Both the position numbers and the translations under genes were made by a program. Under the pieces are notes generated by a model, which saw only the letters and a list, made by a program, of their open reading frames with translations, was not told where the DNA came from and did not search any database. Below, one piece after another: positions 518 to 38,091 of a DNA stretch of 64,000 bases (positions within the stretch are counted from its first letter, which is position 1; each line of letters begins with the position of its first letter). Source of the DNA: a virus (Duplodnaviria; Caudoviricetes); the IMG/VR virus record IMGVR_UViG_3300038679_000357, positions 1-64,000 of that record; one strand, 5' to 3'.

Positions 518-600
518 AAACTCAAAGGTTCTAGCCACATTCCTATTGAATCGATATGATTCACACACCCCTAATTCAACGAAGGAGAGGTAGTCTATCT

Positions 601-1722
601 ATGAATGACATTGGATCGGAACAAGAAGAAAATTCGGAGAATCATGAAGAACCTCCGCCTAGTTGGGCGGATTGGAAATGGCAACTCAAAAACAGAATCA
701 GAAACATCAATACGTTGAAGAAATCATTCCCCAACATCCCCGATCCAGAAGGTATCACGGCTGCCTTACAAACCTTTCCAATGGCGATAACGCCATACTA
801 TGCATCACTCATACGCAACCTATCATATACTGATCCAATTTTTGCCATGTCAATTCCAAACAGGGCAGAAACCATGGATCAGGCATTGCTCACTGACGAC
901 CCCCTGGGAGAAATCCACGATACTGTTGTGCCCCACCTTGTTCACAGATATCAAGATCGGGCACTACTTATTGCCACAGGGAAATGTGCTATGTATTGCC
1001 GACACTGCACACGTAAGCGTCTCGCAGGAAAAGATGAGCGACCCATCTCCAATGGAGATCTTGAAGGAGCTGTTGATTACATCAGGAAACATCCTGAGAT
1101 ACACGATGTTGTTATTTCTGGCGGAGACCCTCTCACTCTGGAAACAGAAGATATCGTCAGAATCGTAGGTGCGGTGCGATCTGTTGAATCCGTCGATATC
1201 ATACGGATAGGGACGCGCACTCCAGTTACGATGCCAATGAGAATCGATAAAAAGCTGTGCGAGGCGCTCGCTCAGTTTCACCCACTGTGGATCAATACGC
1301 ATTTCAATCATCCGGTAGAAATGACTTGGGAAGCTATGCAGGCGTGCAAAATGCTTGCTGATCACGGTTTCCCTATCGGAAATCAAAGTGTTCTCTTAAA
1401 AGGCGTCAATGACAGTCCACAGATAATGATGGAACTGTGTCGAAACCTGGTAAAAAACAGAGTAAGACCATACTATCTTTATCAATGCGACTTGGTATAC
1501 GGCGTCGAACACTTCAGAACAGACTTGGAGACTGGTCTAGGTATCATGGAAGCACTTCGAGGACGACTTAGTGGTCTAGCCATCCCAACATTCGTTATTG
1601 ATGCACCTGATGGAGGCGGAAAGATCCCCATTCTGCCAGACTACATTAAATCACTTGAGGGAAATGTTTTGAAGATGCGGAACTTTGAAGGGAAGGACTG
1701 CGAATACGCCTTCCCGGCATAA
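601..1722 (+). CDS. kamA: KamA-family radical SAM lysine 2,3-aminomutase
   Basis: CAMYCRHCTRKR, SGGDPL, RIGTRTPV, NQSVLLKGVND, PYYLYQCD, DAPDGGGKIP. Confidence 0.9.
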   Translation: MNDIGSEQEENSENHEEPPPSWADWKWQLKNRIRNINTLKKSFPNIPDPEGITAALQTFPMAITPYYASLIRNLSYTDPIFAMSIPNRAETMDQALLTDDPLGEIHDTVVPHLVHRYQDRALLIATGKCAMYCRHCTRKRLAGKDERPISNGDLEGAVDYIRKHPEIHDVVISGGDPLTLETEDIVRIVGAVRSVESVDIIRIGTRTPVTMPMRIDKKLCEALAQFHPLWINTHFNHPVEMTWEAMQACKMLADHGFPIGNQSVLLKGVNDSPQIMMELCRNLVKNRVRPYYLYQCDLVYGVEHFRTDLETGLGIMEALRGRLSGLAIPTFVIDAPDGGGKIPILPDYIKSLEGNVLKMRNFEGKDCEYAFPA

Positions 1723-2230: not shown

Positions 2231-2305
2231 TGGCAGGTCCGCCCAGCTACGATCTGGGATCAAGGTTTTTGGAGAACCTCATGCTACCAATTACACCACG
2301 GACCT
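2231..2305 (-). tRNA. tRNA-Trp(CCA), atypical T-loop AUCGUAG
   Basis: Stem AGGTT/AACCT, loop CTCCAAA, encoded CCA. Confidence 0.85.
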
Positions 2306-2306
2306 A

Positions 2307-2873
2307 CTATATCAAACCGTATGCCAGCGCCCATTTCCTGATAGCCTTATCGGAAACGCCATGCATATCAGCAATACAAACCTTGGTGTATTTAGATAGC
2401 ATTTCCGCCAACTCTTCTTTTGATGGACGCCTAATCTTTCTTGATTTCAAACAAGCACATTTTACCGAACAATATTTGCGTTTAGAGTAAATCGGAACTA
2501 CAAATCCAGTTCCGCAATATTTACAACTTCTAGTTTCTTCTATCTTCACTCGCTGATCATAATCTGAATATCTTTCATCAAAAATCGCATATGATTCGGG
2601 AAGAGCACGAAAATCATTATGAAACTCTCTATGACATAGACAGCAAATCAACACGCACTTTCTCAATTCATCAACGATCTTACTCCATGCGGTGCAGTGC
2701 GAAGTAAGCTGACTTATGGTGTGCTCTTTTTCTTTTGGATCAAGATGGTGAAGTTCTAATGCCTCATTACACAGAAAATAGTGACAGCAAATACACGAAC
2801 CACCCATTGATAATACGATCCTGTTTTTTGTTTCTGATCTCCACTTCTTTACTCTTTCTGACGACATTGACAT
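2307..2873 (-). CDS. HNH homing endonuclease
   Basis: CxCC..LELHHLDP..CVLICCLCHREFH; C-terminal Zn/HTH; ends TAG TAG. Confidence 0.8.
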   Translation of the reverse strand: MSMSSERVKKWRSETKNRIVLSMGGSCICCHYFLCNEALELHHLDPKEKEHTISQLTSHCTAWSKIVDELRKCVLICCLCHREFHNDFRALPESYAIFDERYSDYDQRVKIEETRSCKYCGTGFVVPIYSKRKYCSVKCACLKSRKIRRPSKEELAEMLSKYTKVCIADMHGVSDKAIRKWALAYGLI

Positions 2874-2939: not shown

Positions 2940-3016
2940 TGGCGGAATTGACCGGGCTCGAACCGGCGACCTTCGCAGTGACAGTGCGACGTTCTAACCA
3001 ACTGAACTACAATTCC
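2940..3016 (-). tRNA. tRNA-Asp(GTC)
   Basis: Canonical cloverleaf, loop CTGTCAC, CCA. Confidence 0.95.
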
Positions 3017-3019
3017 TTA

Positions 3020-3101
3020 TGGCTCCCGAGGAGGGACTCGAACCCCCAAGCTTTACGCGCCAAATTAACAGTTTGGTGCCTTACCATTAGGCTACTCGGG
3101 A
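3020..3101 (-). tRNA. tRNA-Asn(GTT) with 12-nt variable arm
   Basis: CCAAA-CTGTTAA-TTTGG, variable region CGCGTAAAGCTT, CCA. Confidence 0.9.
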
Positions 3102-3105
3102 ACGA

Positions 3106-3141
3106 AAACGAAAAAGCCCCAAACCTTGCGGCTTGGGGCTC
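3106..3141 (-). terminator. intrinsic terminator of attenuator 1
   Basis: GCCCCAAGCC-GCAA-GGTTTGGGGC followed by TTTTTCGTTTT, just upstream of tRNA-Asn. Confidence 0.85.
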
Positions 3142-3161
3142 GAAATCCTAAAATCAGACCT

Positions 3162-3236
3162 TCAGGAACGAACAACCAGCCGCGAGGACGTATTATCGTC
3201 CGCGTCACGCCAGTTATTATCATTCTTGAAGCTCAT
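3162..3236 (-). CDS. Asn/Asp/Trp-rich leader peptide MSFKNDNNWRDADDNTSSRLVVRS
   Basis: AAGGA SD 9 nt upstream; 24 codons; lies between promoter and terminator. Confidence 0.75.
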   Translation of the reverse strand: MSFKNDNNWRDADDNTSSRLVVRS

Positions 3237-3275
3237 GATTTGTTATCCTTGTTGATTTTGTCTACTCTGAGTATA

Positions 3276-3304
3276 AATATACGATCATTCTTTTAGGATA
3301 TCAA
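3276..3304 (-). promoter_or_regulatory. sigma70-type promoter TTGATA-N17-TATATT
   Basis: Same hexamers and spacing at 11899-11927 and 36710-36738. Confidence 0.8.
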
Positions 3305-10368: not shown

Positions 10369-10424
10369 TTGCTTTCTCAATATATGGGGGGCGGATCGCC
10401 TTTCAATAACCTACCTTCATTTCC

Positions 10425-11725: not shown

Positions 11726-11731
11726 GTACAA

Positions 11732-11762
11732 ACTTAAAGCCCCGGTCTTGCGAACCGGGGCT
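11732..11762 (-). terminator. terminator of attenuator 2
   Basis: AGCCCCGGT-TCGCAAG-ACCGGGGCT then TTAAGTTT. Confidence 0.8.
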
Positions 11763-11792
11763 CCTATCAAAACTGATCTACGTTCCATCAGA

Positions 11793-11867
11793 TCATGCGA
11801 AGGAGTCCGGTGCGCCGCTAGAGCAGCTTACCGATCCACACATAATACTGACTGAGACGTTTTTCAT
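11793..11867 (-). CDS. Ser/Val/Cys-rich leader peptide MKNVSVSIMCGSVSCSSGAPDSFA
   Basis: AAGGA SD; 24 codons using all six Ser codons and both Cys codons. Confidence 0.8.
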   Translation of the reverse strand: MKNVSVSIMCGSVSCSSGAPDSFA

Positions 11868-11898
11868 TTCGTAAAATTTCCTTGTTTGATCTAAGAGG

Positions 11899-11927
11899 AA
11901 TATAGGACCACTTTCTAAGTTTATCAA
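11899..11927 (-). promoter_or_regulatory. promoter TTGATA-N17-TATATT
   Basis: Hexamers identical to the promoters at 3276 and 36710. Confidence 0.8.
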
Positions 11928-12578: not shown

Positions 12579-13332
12579 TAATTCTATCTCGCGCCTTCAC
12601 GACGTCATATTCCACTTTCCGAACGTCAACTTTGATGACTGCATCATCGTCGTATTCAACAACCACATAATTTGCCCGCCAATCATGTTCACCACGCGGT
12701 TGCCCGACGCTTCCAATATTCAACACATGGGCATGACCTCGTTTCAATTTGCTTGTTGACTTCACGCCAAACATTCCATCTGTAATAACAGAGTTTTCAA
12801 CACCATTCTTTGCACGATGTCCATGAATGATATAGTGAGTATGTCCAAAAAATCCAATTTCAAAATCATCCCTTACCATTGATGAAATGGTTGACTTCAC
12901 TACATGAGCATACAAAAGATAAGGGAAAGTGATGTCAAACGGATAGGAGCCGTGAGCAAAAACCGCCCGCTGCGCACCAAACTTCATCTCCTCAGTCTTA
13001 GGAAGAGATTGTAACCATTTGATGGTTCGCGTGGATATTTTCTTCATCGTATAATCAATACTGATTCGAGCAAGATCGCTCATATCCATCCAAGTACCAG
13101 AGGCGGCAAGGTCGTGATTGCCGACAACAACCCTTGAGCAAGAAGATCTCACGATGTCTACACAATCTTCTGGATCTGCTCCATACCCAACGGTGTCTCC
13201 TAAACAAATCGTTTCTACACAGCCGATCTTAGCAAGATCCTTCATAACAGCTTCAAGAGCCTGCAAGTTGGCGTGAACGTCACTAATCACGGCGACCTTA
13301 CGAGAAAGAGTGCTATTAGTTAGGTCCAACAA
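12517..13332 (-). CDS. calcineurin-like metallophosphoesterase
   Basis: SDVHAN, LGDTVGYG, GNHD, AHGS, FGHTH, NIGSVGQPR. Confidence 0.9.
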   Translation of the reverse strand: MLDLTNSTLSRKVAVISDVHANLQALEAVMKDLAKIGCVETICLGDTVGYGADPEDCVDIVRSSCSRVVVGNHDLAASGTWMDMSDLARISIDYTMKKISTRTIKWLQSLPKTEEMKFGAQRAVFAHGSYPFDITFPYLLYAHVVKSTISSMVRDDFEIGFFGHTHYIIHGHRAKNGVENSVITDGMFGVKSTSKLKRGHAHVLNIGSVGQPRGEHDWRANYVVVEYDDDAVIKVDVRKVEYDVVKARDRIIESGLPAYNGDRLLQGFKER

Positions 13333-17043: not shown

Positions 17044-18306
17044 AAAAATCCTACATAGAAAGAAGGATTTTGTAAAGTTTTACGGTATAAGTAATCATGA
17101 AGGTGAATAAGACATTCAAATACAGAATCTATCCAACCAAAGAACAGGCTGTTCTTTTGGCAAAGCACTTCGGAGCCAAACGCTTCATCTTCAATCATTT
17201 CCTTGATCAACGGAAGACCGCCTACCTTGAAACCAAGAAGTCACTGTCTTATTATGATAATGCTAAAAGCCTAACCGAAATGAAACACTCGGAAGAATTT
17301 GCATGGATGAAAGAAATTAACTCGCAATCTCTTCAGGCTTCGTTAAGGGACTTGGATGCTGCTTACAACCGCTTCTTCTCCAAGCAAGGTAAGTTCCCTA
17401 AGTTCAAGTCAAAGGATGATAAGCAGAGTTTCAGGATACCGCAGAATGTCTACTACGAAGACGGTCTATTGGATGTTCCGAAGTTCAAAGAGCCTATCAA
17501 GGTGGTTGAAGACCGCCCTTTGACTGGTAAGATACTTTTCGCCACTATGTCCAAGACTTCTACGGGCAAGTATTTCGTTTCGATTACCTGTGAGGCAGAG
17601 CATGTATCCTTCAAGAAGACAAAGGGGCAAATCGGAGTCGATCTCGGCTTAAAGGACTTAGCAGTTCTTTCAGACGGAACTAGATACAAGAATGTCAGAA
17701 GTACCAAAAAGCATGAAAGGAAGTTGGCACACGAACAGAGGCAGTTGAGTAAGAAGAAAAAGGGTTCTGTAAATAGAGCCAAACAGAAGATCAAAGTGGC
17801 AAGGGTTAACGAGAAGATTGCTAATTCTCGTAATGATCACATCCACAAGATCACGACAGGCATAGTTCGTGAAAACCAAACGATCTGTGTCGAGAGCCTA
17901 TCTGTGGCAAACATGATGAAAAATCATTGTCTTGCCAAAGGGATAGCCGATGTCGCATGGGGTGAAATCCTATGGCAGTTGAAGTACAAGTCGGAATGGA
18001 ACGGAAGACAGTTGTTGATTGTAGATAGGTTTTTCCCTTCCAGCAAGACCTGTAATTACTGTAAGTTCGTAAATCAAGGCTTGACCTTGGCTGATAGAAC
18101 TTGGATTTGCCCTAGATGTGGAAAAGAATTAGAAAGAGACTTGAATGCTTCGAGGAATATCTTGGAGCAGGGTCTTAACGGTCTAAACGATTTAAACTCT
18201 GGTTTCGGAACGAAGTCGGAGGATAAACAAAAACGAGGGGAGGCATTGCCAAGAGGCAAGTCAAGGAACCTCGAAACCACACCATCTTTAGTGGTGGGGT
18301 AGTTCA
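17044..18306 (+). mobile_element. IS200/IS605-family TnpB-only element
   Basis: Left-end hairpin AAAATCCT/AGGATTTT, right end GTAGTTCA, no TSD, flanks rejoin in frame. Confidence 0.85.
17097..18302 (+). CDS. tnpB: RNA-guided endonuclease TnpB
   Basis: N-terminal HTH, GVDLGLK, VESL, CNYC/CPRC Zn finger, RDLNASRNI. Confidence 0.95.
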   Translation: MKVNKTFKYRIYPTKEQAVLLAKHFGAKRFIFNHFLDQRKTAYLETKKSLSYYDNAKSLTEMKHSEEFAWMKEINSQSLQASLRDLDAAYNRFFSKQGKFPKFKSKDDKQSFRIPQNVYYEDGLLDVPKFKEPIKVVEDRPLTGKILFATMSKTSTGKYFVSITCEAEHVSFKKTKGQIGVDLGLKDLAVLSDGTRYKNVRSTKKHERKLAHEQRQLSKKKKGSVNRAKQKIKVARVNEKIANSRNDHIHKITTGIVRENQTICVESLSVANMMKNHCLAKGIADVAWGEILWQLKYKSEWNGRQLLIVDRFFPSSKTCNYCKFVNQGLTLADRTWICPRCGKELERDLNASRNILEQGLNGLNDLNSGFGTKSEDKQKRGEALPRGKSRNLETTPSLVVG

Positions 18307-18372
18307 TCTGTCGTTTTTAGTGTCATTCTAAATTGAATTTTCCATAATCCATAATACAATATCATACAAAAT

Positions 18373-18447
18373 GTTCCCGTAGCCAAGCGGTAAGGCAGAT
18401 GTCTCTAAAACATCTATGCGTGGGTTCGATCCCCATCGGGAGCGCCA
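18373..18447 (+). tRNA. amber suppressor tRNA(CTA)
   Basis: GTTCCCG/CGGGAGC, GCCAAGCGGTAAGGC, GATGT-CTCTAAA-ACATC, G73, CCA. Confidence 0.92.
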
Positions 18448-22448: not shown

Positions 22449-22622
22449 AGATACATTATGTTATGTGAATATAGTATGTCCCATGCTCTTTTCAATACGA
22501 CGCCGAATAAATTATTGATGGCTAAGGCTACTCAGTTATTTCCTTAGAACATTCGTGACATGGGCATTGATCAACGCCATATTGCTGAAGATCCATTTCA
22601 GAAAAATGATTCGCCCCGTACT

Positions 22623-24914: not shown

Positions 24915-25007
24915 GTCATTTGAAACTATAACTACTTCAAAAGAGATTTCAATCCCTTTTTCGGGAATTTTGAAGCAATGATACCTCCCGCAAGAGAACA
25001 CGGTGTT

Positions 25008-29092: not shown

Positions 29093-29187
29093 TGGTCCGT
29101 CAGGTGGGACTTGAACCCACATCAACCCCTTAGCCGGGGACATCCTTACCGTGTTAAAACACGGAATTTCCATTAGACGACTGACGA
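29093..29187 (-). ncRNA. tRNA-like RNA with hairpin inserted in the D loop
   Basis: GTCTAATGG[AAATT-CCGTGT-TTTA-ACACGG]TAAGGAT; loop CGGCTAA; T arm and CCA intact. Confidence 0.75.
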
Positions 29188-34455: not shown

Positions 34456-34544
34456 TGGTGGGTGCTGAAGGAGTTGAACCTTCCGCCCGCCGCCGCACAT
34501 ATTAAAGGCGCGGGTTTTACAGACCCGCGTGTGGAACAGCACCC
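34456..34544 (-). tRNA. tRNA-Tyr(GTA) apparently lacking a D arm
   Basis: GGGTGCT/AGCACCC, GCGGGT-CTGTAAA-ACCCGC, long variable region, CCA. Confidence 0.75.
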
Positions 34545-35020
34545 ATTTTTCTTCCAGGGCAATAAGTTTCAGTCTGAGAGTGACAATTAGGGCATAAGAT
34601 GCGTAAATTTTGCATTCTATTATCGCGTGAATCTCCATTTATATGGTCTAAATGCAAAACCAACTTTTTTCCCCTCCACATTGGTAGTAACCCACATTCG
34701 CTACACTCATTCTTCAGAATGTCCAATTTGAATAGCTTGTGCTTCAAATTATGAGACGTCCATCCGGGACCATCCTTTACAAGAACATCTTTTATGAATT
34801 GTTCCTTGGAACGACAACCCTTCAGGGCACTAGCTCGATTGCGCTCTGATATGTCGAAATGGGAAGTGTTTATTCCATAAGATAGAACCTTTTTGCGAAA
34901 AATCTCATAATTACTCCCTCTCGGAATAAGACCCATGGATCGCATCGCTTCAGATATTGAATTGCTTTTAGAAATTGCTTCTGCAATTTCTTCCCTACTG
35001 TATGGAGCTTTTCTTGGCAT
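34517..35020 (-). CDS. HNH homing endonuclease
   Basis: CSEC..LDHINGDSRDNRMQNLRILCPNCHSQT; stop inside the tRNA-Tyr anticodon loop. Confidence 0.85.
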   Translation of the reverse strand: MPRKAPYSREEIAEAISKSNSISEAMRSMGLIPRGSNYEIFRKKVLSYGINTSHFDISERNRASALKGCRSKEQFIKDVLVKDGPGWTSHNLKHKLFKLDILKNECSECGLLPMWRGKKLVLHLDHINGDSRDNRMQNLRILCPNCHSQTETYCPGRKMGAVPHAGL

Positions 35021-36332: not shown

Positions 36333-36335
36333 ACA

Positions 36336-36478
36336 ACGGCGGACGCCGATCGTCCGCCGGTTATCAATATCGAACACAGCACTCGTTGGCGGAGAGTGCT
36401 GTAGACTACTGCAAGTTGTCAATGAACCCGCTCGATTTCACTAGGATCTCCTATCTTCGTGAGGGTCGGCAACCCTGA
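36336..36478 (-). ncRNA. structured segment between attenuator 3 and the first tRNA
   Basis: GGCGGACG/CGTCCGCC, ACAGCACTC/GAGTGCTGT, AGGGT/ACCCT. Confidence 0.45.
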
Positions 36479-36515
36479 AAAACTTGAAGCCCGGAACCTT
36501 TTGGCTCCGGGCTTC
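36478..36515 (-). terminator. terminator of attenuator 3
   Basis: GAAGCCCGGAGCC-AAAA-GGTTCCGGGCTTC then AAGTTTTT. Confidence 0.8.
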
Positions 36516-36542
36516 TTAAAGCTTCCTGGAATTTTTCCTACT

Positions 36543-36659
36543 TCACCAGGTACTCAAAAGATCGGAGCCGTCTACCGTAAGTGGTAGATAACCGAACACG
36601 AATAACCCAACATGGGCTGCTCGTGCGGCGGGCTTTTGTTCTTTTGTGGTGATAATCAT
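36543..36659 (-). CDS. leader peptide MIITTKEQKPAARAAHVGLFVFGYLPLTVDGSDLLSTW
   Basis: AAGGA SD 10 nt upstream; 38 codons; between promoter and terminator. Confidence 0.7.
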   Translation of the reverse strand: MIITTKEQKPAARAAHVGLFVFGYLPLTVDGSDLLSTW

Positions 36660-36709
36660 TTTCGGACATTCCTTAGTTGCGGCTGCATGCCGCGTTGTTT
36701 TCTGAAAAC

Positions 36710-36738
36710 AATATAGGCTCGATAAACGACATTATCAA
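36710..36738 (-). promoter_or_regulatory. promoter TTGATA-N17-TATATT
   Basis: Third copy with identical hexamers. Confidence 0.8.
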
Positions 36739-36759: not shown

Positions 36760-38091
36760 TTAACTCACTGATCGAGCAAAGTTAATCGCCGCCTGACGAG
36801 CTTCCTGCAGTGTCTCGATTGGCTTCTTGCCGCATTTCCTATATGGAACGGAACTATCAGTGCAAGTTCCTTCTTCATAGAGCATATCACCGAGCTTGAA
36901 CCCGCAGATTGCCCAATGACTCCATCCATACCATTTTTTATCTTTTGTGCTATATCCGATTGAGCACACGGAATGATCAGGAGATGCTTTTTCTGGTCGA
37001 ATTCCTTTCGTGGTGCAAATGAAGTGTGCTTCCTTAGAATTTCCGATGAAATCTCCAGATGGATTATAAGCCATCCTTTCCATAACTATATCTTCGCCAT
37101 CGAGCGTCCAAACTTCATCCCGAAGAATATATCCAGATCGATAGCGACGCTCACGAATAACCTTTTTCGTTTCAACGCCACTAGCAATTTTCAAAAGTGG
37201 AATCGAATCTACACAGGCAGCGACAATGCTTACGGCGTCATCATCGCGTTCTGGAATATCGATCTCCCCCTCCTCATCAACGTCAATGTCAACAATATTT
37301 ACCTCGTTGTCGTTCGCCTGAACAGTTATCTCAACTGCTTCCGAGGTGACATAGTTCAACGCGATATACTTAACGTTCTTCTTGGATGAGCCCCAGGCAA
37401 ATATTTCAGTGGAAGCATCCCACATTCTGGATGCAAGCTGAGTAGATAGCTCTGCTGCCGCGCAAGAAGGATTTTCCATAGCGACAGGCATTACATCGAG
37501 AAACATTGGTTTCATCGCCTCAACTGCGGCAGCCAATCCGTCGAAATGTCCACGCGGAAGGGCGCATGCTTTTTTGATACCTGTAGGCATTGCTCCCATG
37601 GAAGGCAGTGAATAGAACTCTTTAATGACCCGGACAATGGAGTATTTATTGAGAGAATCTTGATGTAGTTTGATCGCTCCACCGTCTCTTACGGTCAAAG
37701 ATGCAGACATGTTCCCGTTACCAACACATCTTTGCAGGGTCATAAGTTGATCAACTGTTGGTTCTTTTCCGATCTCCACATACACATCGCCACCGACAAT
37801 AGAGAAGCGGATGCCGCCATCGCGTTCAAACATCAGTATGGCTTCATACTTTTCCAAGTATCCGTCCGTATCATACGCTTGAGCAATGGAGCCATGATCG
37901 ATATCGCGATGATACCCGCTTTCAGATCCATTGAGCATTTTTCCATCTGGAATAATCCAGATGGCCATTGATGGGTCATTCGTTACGCCGAAAAGATCCT
38001 TAGCCCTCGTCATGACATCGCCAGTAGAAATGGGTAATTCATCAGTCGGAGTGTCTTCCTGATTTTGTCCAAATTTATCAAACCAAGTCAT
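36760..38091 (-). CDS. hypothetical protein
   Basis: 443 aa ORF. Confidence 0.75.
   Translation of the reverse strand: MTWFDKFGQNQEDTPTDELPISTGDVMTRAKDLFGVTNDPSMAIWIIPDGKMLNGSESGYHRDIDHGSIAQAYDTDGYLEKYEAILMFERDGGIRFSIVGGDVYVEIGKEPTVDQLMTLQRCVGNGNMSASLTVRDGGAIKLHQDSLNKYSIVRVIKEFYSLPSMGAMPTGIKKACALPRGHFDGLAAAVEAMKPMFLDVMPVAMENPSCAAAELSTQLASRMWDASTEIFAWGSSKKNVKYIALNYVTSEAVEITVQANDNEVNIVDIDVDEEGEIDIPERDDDAVSIVAACVDSIPLLKIASGVETKKVIRERRYRSGYILRDEVWTLDGEDIVMERMAYNPSGDFIGNSKEAHFICTTKGIRPEKASPDHSVCSIGYSTKDKKWYGWSHWAICGFKLGDMLYEEGTCTDSSVPYRKCGKKPIETLQEARQAAINFARSVS

Follow-up and report, generated by a model that had tools for sequence, protein, structure and literature searches.

A putative leader-peptide attenuator upstream of tRNA-Asn, tRNA-Asp and tRNA-Trp genes in a giant phage

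The window analyzed here covers the initial 64 kb of one contig of 255,142 bp (42.5% G+C) from an uncultured giant phage recovered from a groundwater metagenome. A 340,706-bp contig carries identical copies of two window proteins, and for this reason the 255-kb record may represent an incomplete genome. ARAGORN predicts 46 tRNA genes in the genome, all of which are located within the first 36 kb and 45 of which lie on the minus strand. Near the start of the window, tRNA-Asn, tRNA-Asp and tRNA-Trp are preceded by a compact leader region, referred to as unit C with its leader C. Its features are listed below, including their conservation in two related phage lineages, r1 and r2, that are introduced further on.

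3299..3304, minus strand: -35 hexamer TTGATA, with a 17-nt spacer to the -10 hexamer
3276..3281, minus strand: -10 hexamer TATATT
3246..3250, minus strand: Shine-Dalgarno sequence AAGGA, 9 nt before the ATG at 3236
3162..3236, minus strand: leader C ORF, 24 codons plus TGA (3164-3162); r1 and r2 keep its frame, length and stop position
3192..3224, minus strand: control region, codons 5 to 15 (N D N N W R D A D D N), in which Asn occurs four times, Asp four times and Trp once
3197..3215, minus strand: segment 1, 5' arm of the 1:2 hairpin
3160..3190, minus strand: segment 2, partner of segment 1 (3190-3174) or of segment 3 (3183-3169); it also contains one arm of an inner hairpin
3128..3142, minus strand: segment 3, antiterminator partner of segment 2 and also 5' arm of the terminator
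3114..3141, minus strand: intrinsic terminator (3:4), a hairpin of 12 bp including 7 G-C pairs
3102..3113, minus strand: U-tract UUUUUCGUUUUCG, abutting tRNA-Asn and identical in the three lineages
3020..3101, minus strand: tRNA-Asn (GTT)
2940..3016, minus strand: tRNA-Asp (GTC)
2307..2873, minus strand: HNH endonuclease gene inserted in the array (PHROG HNH endonuclease, E = 1.5e-24)
2231..2305, minus strand: tRNA-Trp (CCA)

The leader C peptide of the window reads MSFKNDNNWRDADDNTSSRLVVRS. Its control set consists of three AAT and one AAC codon for Asn, two GAT and two GAC codons for Asp, and a single TGG codon for Trp, and the only tRNAs downstream of the leader are tRNA-Asn(GTT), tRNA-Asp(GTC) and tRNA-Trp(CCA). 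An earlier, sequence-only reading of this DNA had named most of these elements, and our analysis recovered its promoter hexamers with their spacing (TTGATA-N17-TATATT at 3304-3276, minus strand), its AAGGA motif (3250-3246, 9 nt from the ATG), its 24-codon leader with eight Asn/Asp codons (both codons of each amino acid) plus one Trp codon, and its exclusive list of three downstream tRNAs. The same reading had the terminator end about 5 nt before tRNA-Asn. The terminator is present; its first U-run ends 8 nt before tRNA-Asn and the entire U-tract reaches the 5' end of the tRNA. No further promoter lies between this U-tract and tRNA-Asn. The HNH gene is absent from the corresponding arrays of r1 and r2.

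In each of the three lineages, a gene for a KamA-family radical-SAM lysine 2,3-aminomutase (window 556-1722, plus strand) faces the end of the Asn/Asp/Trp array in convergent orientation. The closest cellular homologues of KamA, at ~60% identity, are found in Lentisphaeria, Phycisphaerae and Kiritimatiellia. These PVC-group bacteria are a possible hint at the host, which itself remains unidentified.

Unit C is one of three such units. The exact pattern TTGATA-N17-TATATT matches three times in the window, against 0.04 matches expected, and nowhere else in the 255-kb genome, and each match heads the same succession of AAGGA, short ORF, strong terminator and tRNA array. The other two matches belong to the following sister units.

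11730..11927, minus strand: sister unit B, with the same promoter and Shine-Dalgarno sequence, a 24-codon leader and a terminator
36478..36738, minus strand: sister unit A, with the same promoter and Shine-Dalgarno sequence, a 38-codon leader and a terminator

The leader of unit B is rich in Ser, Val, Ile, Met, Cys and Gly, and the array that follows it encodes Ile-Cys-Ser-Ser-Met-Gly-Ser-Val-Val-Ser-Val. Unit A precedes the large array beginning at tRNA-Pro 36332.

The composition of the leaders was evaluated against the amino-acid usage of the genome's own long ORFs as background, and against a comparison set of 1430 ATG ORFs of 20-45 codons drawn from the whole genome. In leader C, 9/23 codons fall in the set {N,D,W} (binomial P = 0.0012), which is the highest share among the 1430 ORFs. 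Leader B has 16/23 codons in {C,G,I,M,S,V} (P = 0.00095) and likewise ranks first among the 1430 for its own set. Leader A alone is weak, with P = 0.11 for enrichment over the whole peptide and P ~0.05 for having each of the 12 amino acids in its set represented. Relative to background usage, the best-fitting array for each leader is its own. The sequence-only reading had considered a chance match unlikely. Both the promoter count and the rank of leader C bear this out, and the enrichment of Asn/Asp/Trp codons to which it had pointed is present at the P value given above.

Protein searches identified the two other phage lineages, r1 and r2, whose neighbouring proteins are 41-51% identical to those of the window. 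Lineage r1, represented by a JGI contig of 500 kb, shares the gene order of the window (neighbouring proteins 46-51% identical), and r2 consists of contigs from ENA and JGI. In r1, each of the three leaders has a homologue before the corresponding array, and leaders A and C were recovered in r2. Searches of other collections were less productive. A blastn comparison with INPHARED phages gave matches only to tRNA genes and no close relative, IMG/VR queried with two neighbouring proteins and three DNA patterns gave no true relative, and a search with the terminator pattern gave 14 matches, all of them unrelated and none (0/14) accompanied by a tRNA array. The first metagenome pattern search found no match and the second found only lineage r2 again, while a pattern scan of genome contigs found no match. 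The 500-kb r1 relative also carries type I-E-like cas genes (Cse1, Cse2, Cas7, Cas5, Cas6e and Cas3; L002:14592-21467) next to its KamA gene. Its ribonucleotide reductase contains an intein with a LAGLIDADG domain (L002:5535-8675), whereas the window ribonucleotide reductase has no intein.

Conservation is concentrated in the leader region itself. From the ORF to the U-tract, nucleotide identity between lineages amounts to 80-88%, compared to 49-58% for the 60 nt upstream. Within each genome, all leader units share that genome's own promoter hexamers, namely TTGATA / TATATT in the window, TTGAAA / CATATT or CATTAT in r1 and TTGAAA / TATAAT in r2, with a 17-nt spacer throughout. The 9-nt distance from AAGGA to the likely start codon is kept in both relatives. 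The leader C peptide reads MTFKNDNNWCDADDNTSSRPVVRS in r1 and M(I/T)FKNDNNWCDADDNTSTRPVVAW in r2, the latter when read from the ATG that preserves this spacing. All nine control codons are invariant as amino acids in the three lineages. Two of them changed synonymously (AAT to AAC and GAT to GAC), both in the unpaired part. By comparison, 6/14 of the non-control codons of leader C are replaced across lineages, and the chance that all six replacements would fall outside the control codons is C(14,6)/C(23,6) = 0.03 by our own arithmetic.

The leader RNA can adopt three overlapping hairpins that are mutually exclusive and similar in stability: the 1:2 hairpin (-19.2 kcal/mol, z -3.1), the 2:3 structure (-22.8 kcal/mol, z -2.9) and the 3:4 terminator (-22.9 kcal/mol, z -5.7). 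The 1:2 hairpin, which would act as anti-antiterminator, overlaps the control codons. Both alternative pairings drawn in the sequence-only reading hold up, the 1:2 hairpin being the minimum-free-energy fold and the 2:3 pairing forming when segment 1 is masked. An alignment for analysis of these pairings contains only three distinct sequences. In it, 98.8% of cells are paired for 1:2 plus 3:4 together, 97.8% for the 1:2 helix and 100% for the 3:4 terminator. The 2:3 helix in the window's register reaches 85.5%, and r2 has a 2:3 helix of its own whose register is slightly shifted. Base 3133 in segment 3 (alignment column 83) is A in the window and G in r1 and r2, and both of its partners changed together with it, terminator position 3122 from U to C and antiterminator position 3178 from U to C (Leu20 to Pro). 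This triple change at 3133/3122/3178 is suggestive, as it is what two functional, mutually exclusive helices would predict. The covariation is not significant with three sequences, and shuffles reach the observed score in 158/500 and 78/500 cases.

We also modelled how the position of a ribosome might affect the choice between these structures. Equilibrium folding of the full-length RNA with a ribosome mask applied gave the terminator in every case. It was dropped as uninformative, and RNA truncated before segment 4 was used instead. The full trp transcript at equilibrium likewise always forms its terminator. Since the terminator always forms at equilibrium, the switch must be kinetic, as in trp, and this is something that folding cannot show. 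In the model used, the RNA ends before the 3' arm of the terminator and a 29-nt mask represents the ribosome. With the A site at codons 1-14 (N5 to D14 included), the 5' arm of the terminator is 0.82 paired, in the 2:3 helix, and this value falls to ~0.3-0.5 once the A site is anywhere from codon 15 to the stop. Without a ribosome, 1:2 forms and segment 3 is unpaired. Asn15 is at or past the edge of the modelled effective window. Within the limits of this model, the switch answers to ribosome position like the trp attenuator. The stall phase in the r1 and r2 models is the same as in the window. Beyond the control codons, segment 3 is less clearly released in r1 (0.58-0.70 paired), and in r2 the release is confined to codons 17-18, beyond which upstream RNA pairs with segment 3 again. 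Ribosome-masked folding of units A and B gave an effect in the same direction as for C that is less clean.

Based on these features, we think it likely that a ribosome-mediated, trp-type transcription attenuator controls the unit composed of tRNA-Asn, tRNA-Asp, the HNH gene and tRNA-Trp. This interpretation had been put forward in the sequence-only reading and is supported at the sequence level, as all its features are present and the unit is conserved in two further lineages. The parts, their conservation, the alternative pairings and the match between codons and tRNAs are computed here. Leader translation, coupling of transcription to translation, stall-dependent read-through and the physiological signal are inferred in the absence of RNA data. 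We propose that transcription would start at the sigma-70-like promoter and that a ribosome would load at AAGGA and translate the 24-codon leader. If charged Asn-, Asp- or Trp-tRNA were scarce, the ribosome would stall in codons 5-14 and cover segment 1. The 2:3 antiterminator could then form in place of the terminator, and RNA polymerase would enter the tRNA genes, after which RNase P might free tRNA-Asn from the leader. If the control codons were read fast, the ribosome would instead cover segment 2 and allow 3:4 to form, and an untranslated leader would form 1:2 plus 3:4. In either case transcription would be expected to end in the U-tract just before tRNA-Asn. Since the tRNA products of the unit would relieve the stall, the circuit would constitute a negative feedback that maintains the supply of the tRNAs it encodes. 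Such a circuit could provide tRNA on demand when host tRNAs are ill-matched, depleted or cleaved during infection, although this use is an inference. Neither promoter use by the host polymerase nor the response to tRNA supply has been tested, there are no data behind either, and the host is unidentified.

The same mechanism could respond to a different signal, namely starvation for an amino acid (lack of Asn, Asp or Trp) and not the supply of tRNA. A stalled ribosome cannot distinguish a missing amino acid from a missing tRNA, and the anatomy of the unit is identical to that of amino-acid attenuators. We nevertheless consider this version unlikely, though it is the hardest to set aside, given that extra tRNA gives no relief from amino-acid starvation and that the division of amino acids among the three leaders follows the tRNA arrays exactly, and not biosynthetic pathways. 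The coverage of individual tRNA species also bears on this question. Leader C samples 3/3 anticodons of its own array. Leader B covers 10/11, and the six Ser codons all occur in it (P = 0.03). For leader A the figure is 19/28 array anticodons. Four of the nine that it misses (CCG, CAU, UCU and CCU) correspond to five tail tRNA genes, with tRNA-Met present twice, and the other five are C34 isoacceptors whose codons can also be read by a U34 tRNA of the array. Leader A samples every non-C34 tRNA species in the part of the array before the candidate internal promoters, a pattern that fits sensing of tRNA species. Because the leaders split the amino acids as the arrays split the tRNA genes, and because their codons are spread over isoacceptors, we infer that it is tRNA supply that would be sensed and not amino-acid supply.

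Consensus promoters without a leader also occur within the arrays. Three of them (TTGAAA-N16-TATAGT or TATATT; minus strand, 24925-24952, 22468-22495 and 10379-10406) are located directly upstream of tRNA-Met 24914, tRNA-Met 22448 and tRNA-Gly 10368. Both tRNA-Met genes belong to the five tail tRNAs unsampled by leader A. These in-array promoters may allow some tRNAs to be expressed independently of the attenuator.

It is also conceivable that the region functions on its own as a small gene, for a peptide of 24 residues or for an sRNA, between its own promoter and a constitutive terminator. The tRNAs would then be expressed from elsewhere and the composition of the leader would be coincidental. 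Genes for small proteins or sRNAs do look like this, with promoter, short ORF and strong terminator all inside 200 nt. We find this explanation improbable, since there are three such units, each immediately before a tRNA array that its composition matches, and since the U-tract abuts the tRNA without a promoter in between. Under this explanation the conserved 2:3 alternative to the terminator would have no role, and it does not account for variable residues falling outside the Asn/Asp/Trp codons. Finally, a translation-independent RNA switch with an incidental ORF, either a T-box-like leader binding uncharged tRNA or a protein-binding leader, would agree with the conserved RNA structures and with the standing of T-boxes as the best-known tRNA-sensing antiterminators, but it can be given very little weight because the Shine-Dalgarno sequence, ATG, frame and stop are conserved, Asn/Asp codons change synonymously with replacements only at other codons, the region of ~100 nt is too short for a T-box Stem I plus antiterminator, and an Rfam 15 cmscan of window 1-40000 with E up to 1 gave no family match, T-box and leader families included, in 3102-3304.

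The attenuator that we favour for unit C has close parallels in bacteria. The leader-peptide attenuators trpL, hisL, leuL and pheL of E. coli and Salmonella control amino-acid biosynthetic operons (PMC3082878, PMC1183508). Unit C shares with the trpL type a promoter, a Shine-Dalgarno sequence, a short ORF with clustered control codons and an intrinsic terminator, as well as the exclusive 1:2, 2:3 and 3:4 hairpins, in which a stall leads to the antiterminator and absence of translation leads to termination. The targets of trpL-type attenuators are biosynthetic enzymes, whereas those of unit C are tRNA genes, its mixed control codons mirror the identities of the downstream tRNAs, and its tRNA products would act directly on the sensor. 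None of the Rfam amino-acid leader families (Trp, His, Leu and Thr leaders) matches the phage leaders at E up to 1.

Attenuators that respond to several amino acids are exemplified by thrL, with Thr plus Ile codons, and by the ilvGMEDA and ilvBN leaders, with Ile/Leu/Val codons. As in the phage leaders, several amino acids are represented per leader, and a shortage of any of them leads to read-through, as is proposed for the phage. In these multivalent attenuators the set is defined by a shared pathway, whereas in the phage it is defined by the downstream tRNA genes and comprises Asn/Asp/Trp in leader C, six amino acids in B and twelve in A. The pheST attenuator, with its pheM leader, controls an aminoacyl-tRNA synthetase. 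It resembles unit C, as interpreted here, in placing a gene of the translation apparatus under the control of stalling at cognate codons, and differs in having a synthetase as target, in sensing a single amino acid and in belonging to a bacterial chromosomal operon. T-box riboswitches, like the switch proposed for unit C, sense tRNA status and choose between terminator and antiterminator, but translation plays no part in them: the RNA itself binds uncharged tRNA by means of a specifier codon and the T-box sequence.

Leaderless tRNA genes and phage arrays have in common with unit C that clustered tRNAs stand behind sigma-70-type promoters. A Phe-rich leader before the E. coli tRNA-Phe genes was considered and rejected as a precedent, as pheV and pheU of MG1655 have none. 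In these genes, unlike in unit C, the promoter is located directly before the tRNA without an ORF or terminator. The unrelated 735-kb phage LR756501 carries an Ile/Cys/Asp/Asn/Tyr array with no comparable leader, and the device is therefore not universal among phage arrays. A full-text literature search gave no report of tRNA genes or arrays controlled by a leader peptide or an attenuator, and a survey of premature terminators (PMC2965389) does not mention tRNA genes.

The mechanism proposed for unit C is thus a known one, whereas its target class, tRNA genes, and its sensing logic are new. The textbook account of tRNA genes is one of control at the promoter, by growth rate and the stringent response, and leader-peptide attenuation is known for amino-acid and synthetase genes. 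With somewhat less assurance than for unit C itself, we think it probable that in this clade of giant phages each tRNA block is under its own leader-peptide attenuator, the leader serving as a codon probe that samples nearly every isoacceptor, so that the block is transcribed when decoding capacity falls. If this is true, tRNA genes would be seen under attenuation control for the first time, and the leaders would be the first attenuators whose signal is the tRNA species instead of the amino acid. The phage would produce its tRNAs when they are needed instead of constitutively, and their autoregulated supply could possibly counter host tRNA depletion or anticodon-nuclease defences. An old attenuation device would have been re-used for sensing tRNA pools, and would present a compact, portable sensor of decoding capacity for chosen codons. 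These considerations bear on the question of why large phages carry tRNAs, whether to match codon usage or to replace depleted or cleaved host tRNAs, as the leaders would state the tRNA shortages that the phage expects.

Several further observations concern unit A and its surroundings. The gene just upstream of leader A (36760-38091, minus strand) ends in a Tad6 domain, a type I Thoeris inhibitor (Pfam E = 5e-39), and keeps this position in the relatives. A spacer of ~150 nt (window 36333-36485, minus strand) separates the leader A terminator from the first tRNA-Pro and has counterparts at L005:11530-11672 and L007:3990-4135. Its motifs GATAGGAGATC and CATTGACAACT are kept in the three lineages, and a G+C-rich hairpin abuts the tRNA. 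Within the array, ARAGORN missed a tRNA-like element at 34459-34545 (minus strand) with the loop CUGUAAA (GUA, Tyr) and a long extra arm, which scores 31.8 bits with the Rfam tRNA-Sec model and sits where r1 and r2 have tRNA-Tyr. Array A therefore probably includes a Tyr tRNA, matching the single Tyr codon of leader A.

Other unusual tRNA-like genes are found in these arrays. An odd 95-nt gene at 29093-29187 (minus strand) has a long extra arm and a hairpin CCGUG-UUUUAA-CACGG. It is annotated by ARAGORN as a poorly paired Val(AAC), and its score of 28.6 bits with the Rfam tRNA model is just below threshold. The tRNA that occupies the equivalent position in the r1 array (L005:17967-18042) carries the anticodon UUA, which reads ochre codons. 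The Asn/Asp/Trp arrays of r1 and r2 contain, or are directly followed by, tRNA-like elements (L002 ~12805-12885 and L021 ~1516-1600) that were recognized by visual inspection and are not called by ARAGORN; their extra arms are long and their anticodon loops include UCA. Lastly, the window contains a TnpB / IS605 OrfB gene (Pfam OrfB_IS605, Cas12f1-like TNB) at 17097-18447 on the plus strand, and 70 nt after it lies the only plus-strand tRNA, whose anticodon is CUA (amber). The anticodon stem of this tRNA has 6 bp, and ARAGORN reports the gene as tRNA-Pyl.
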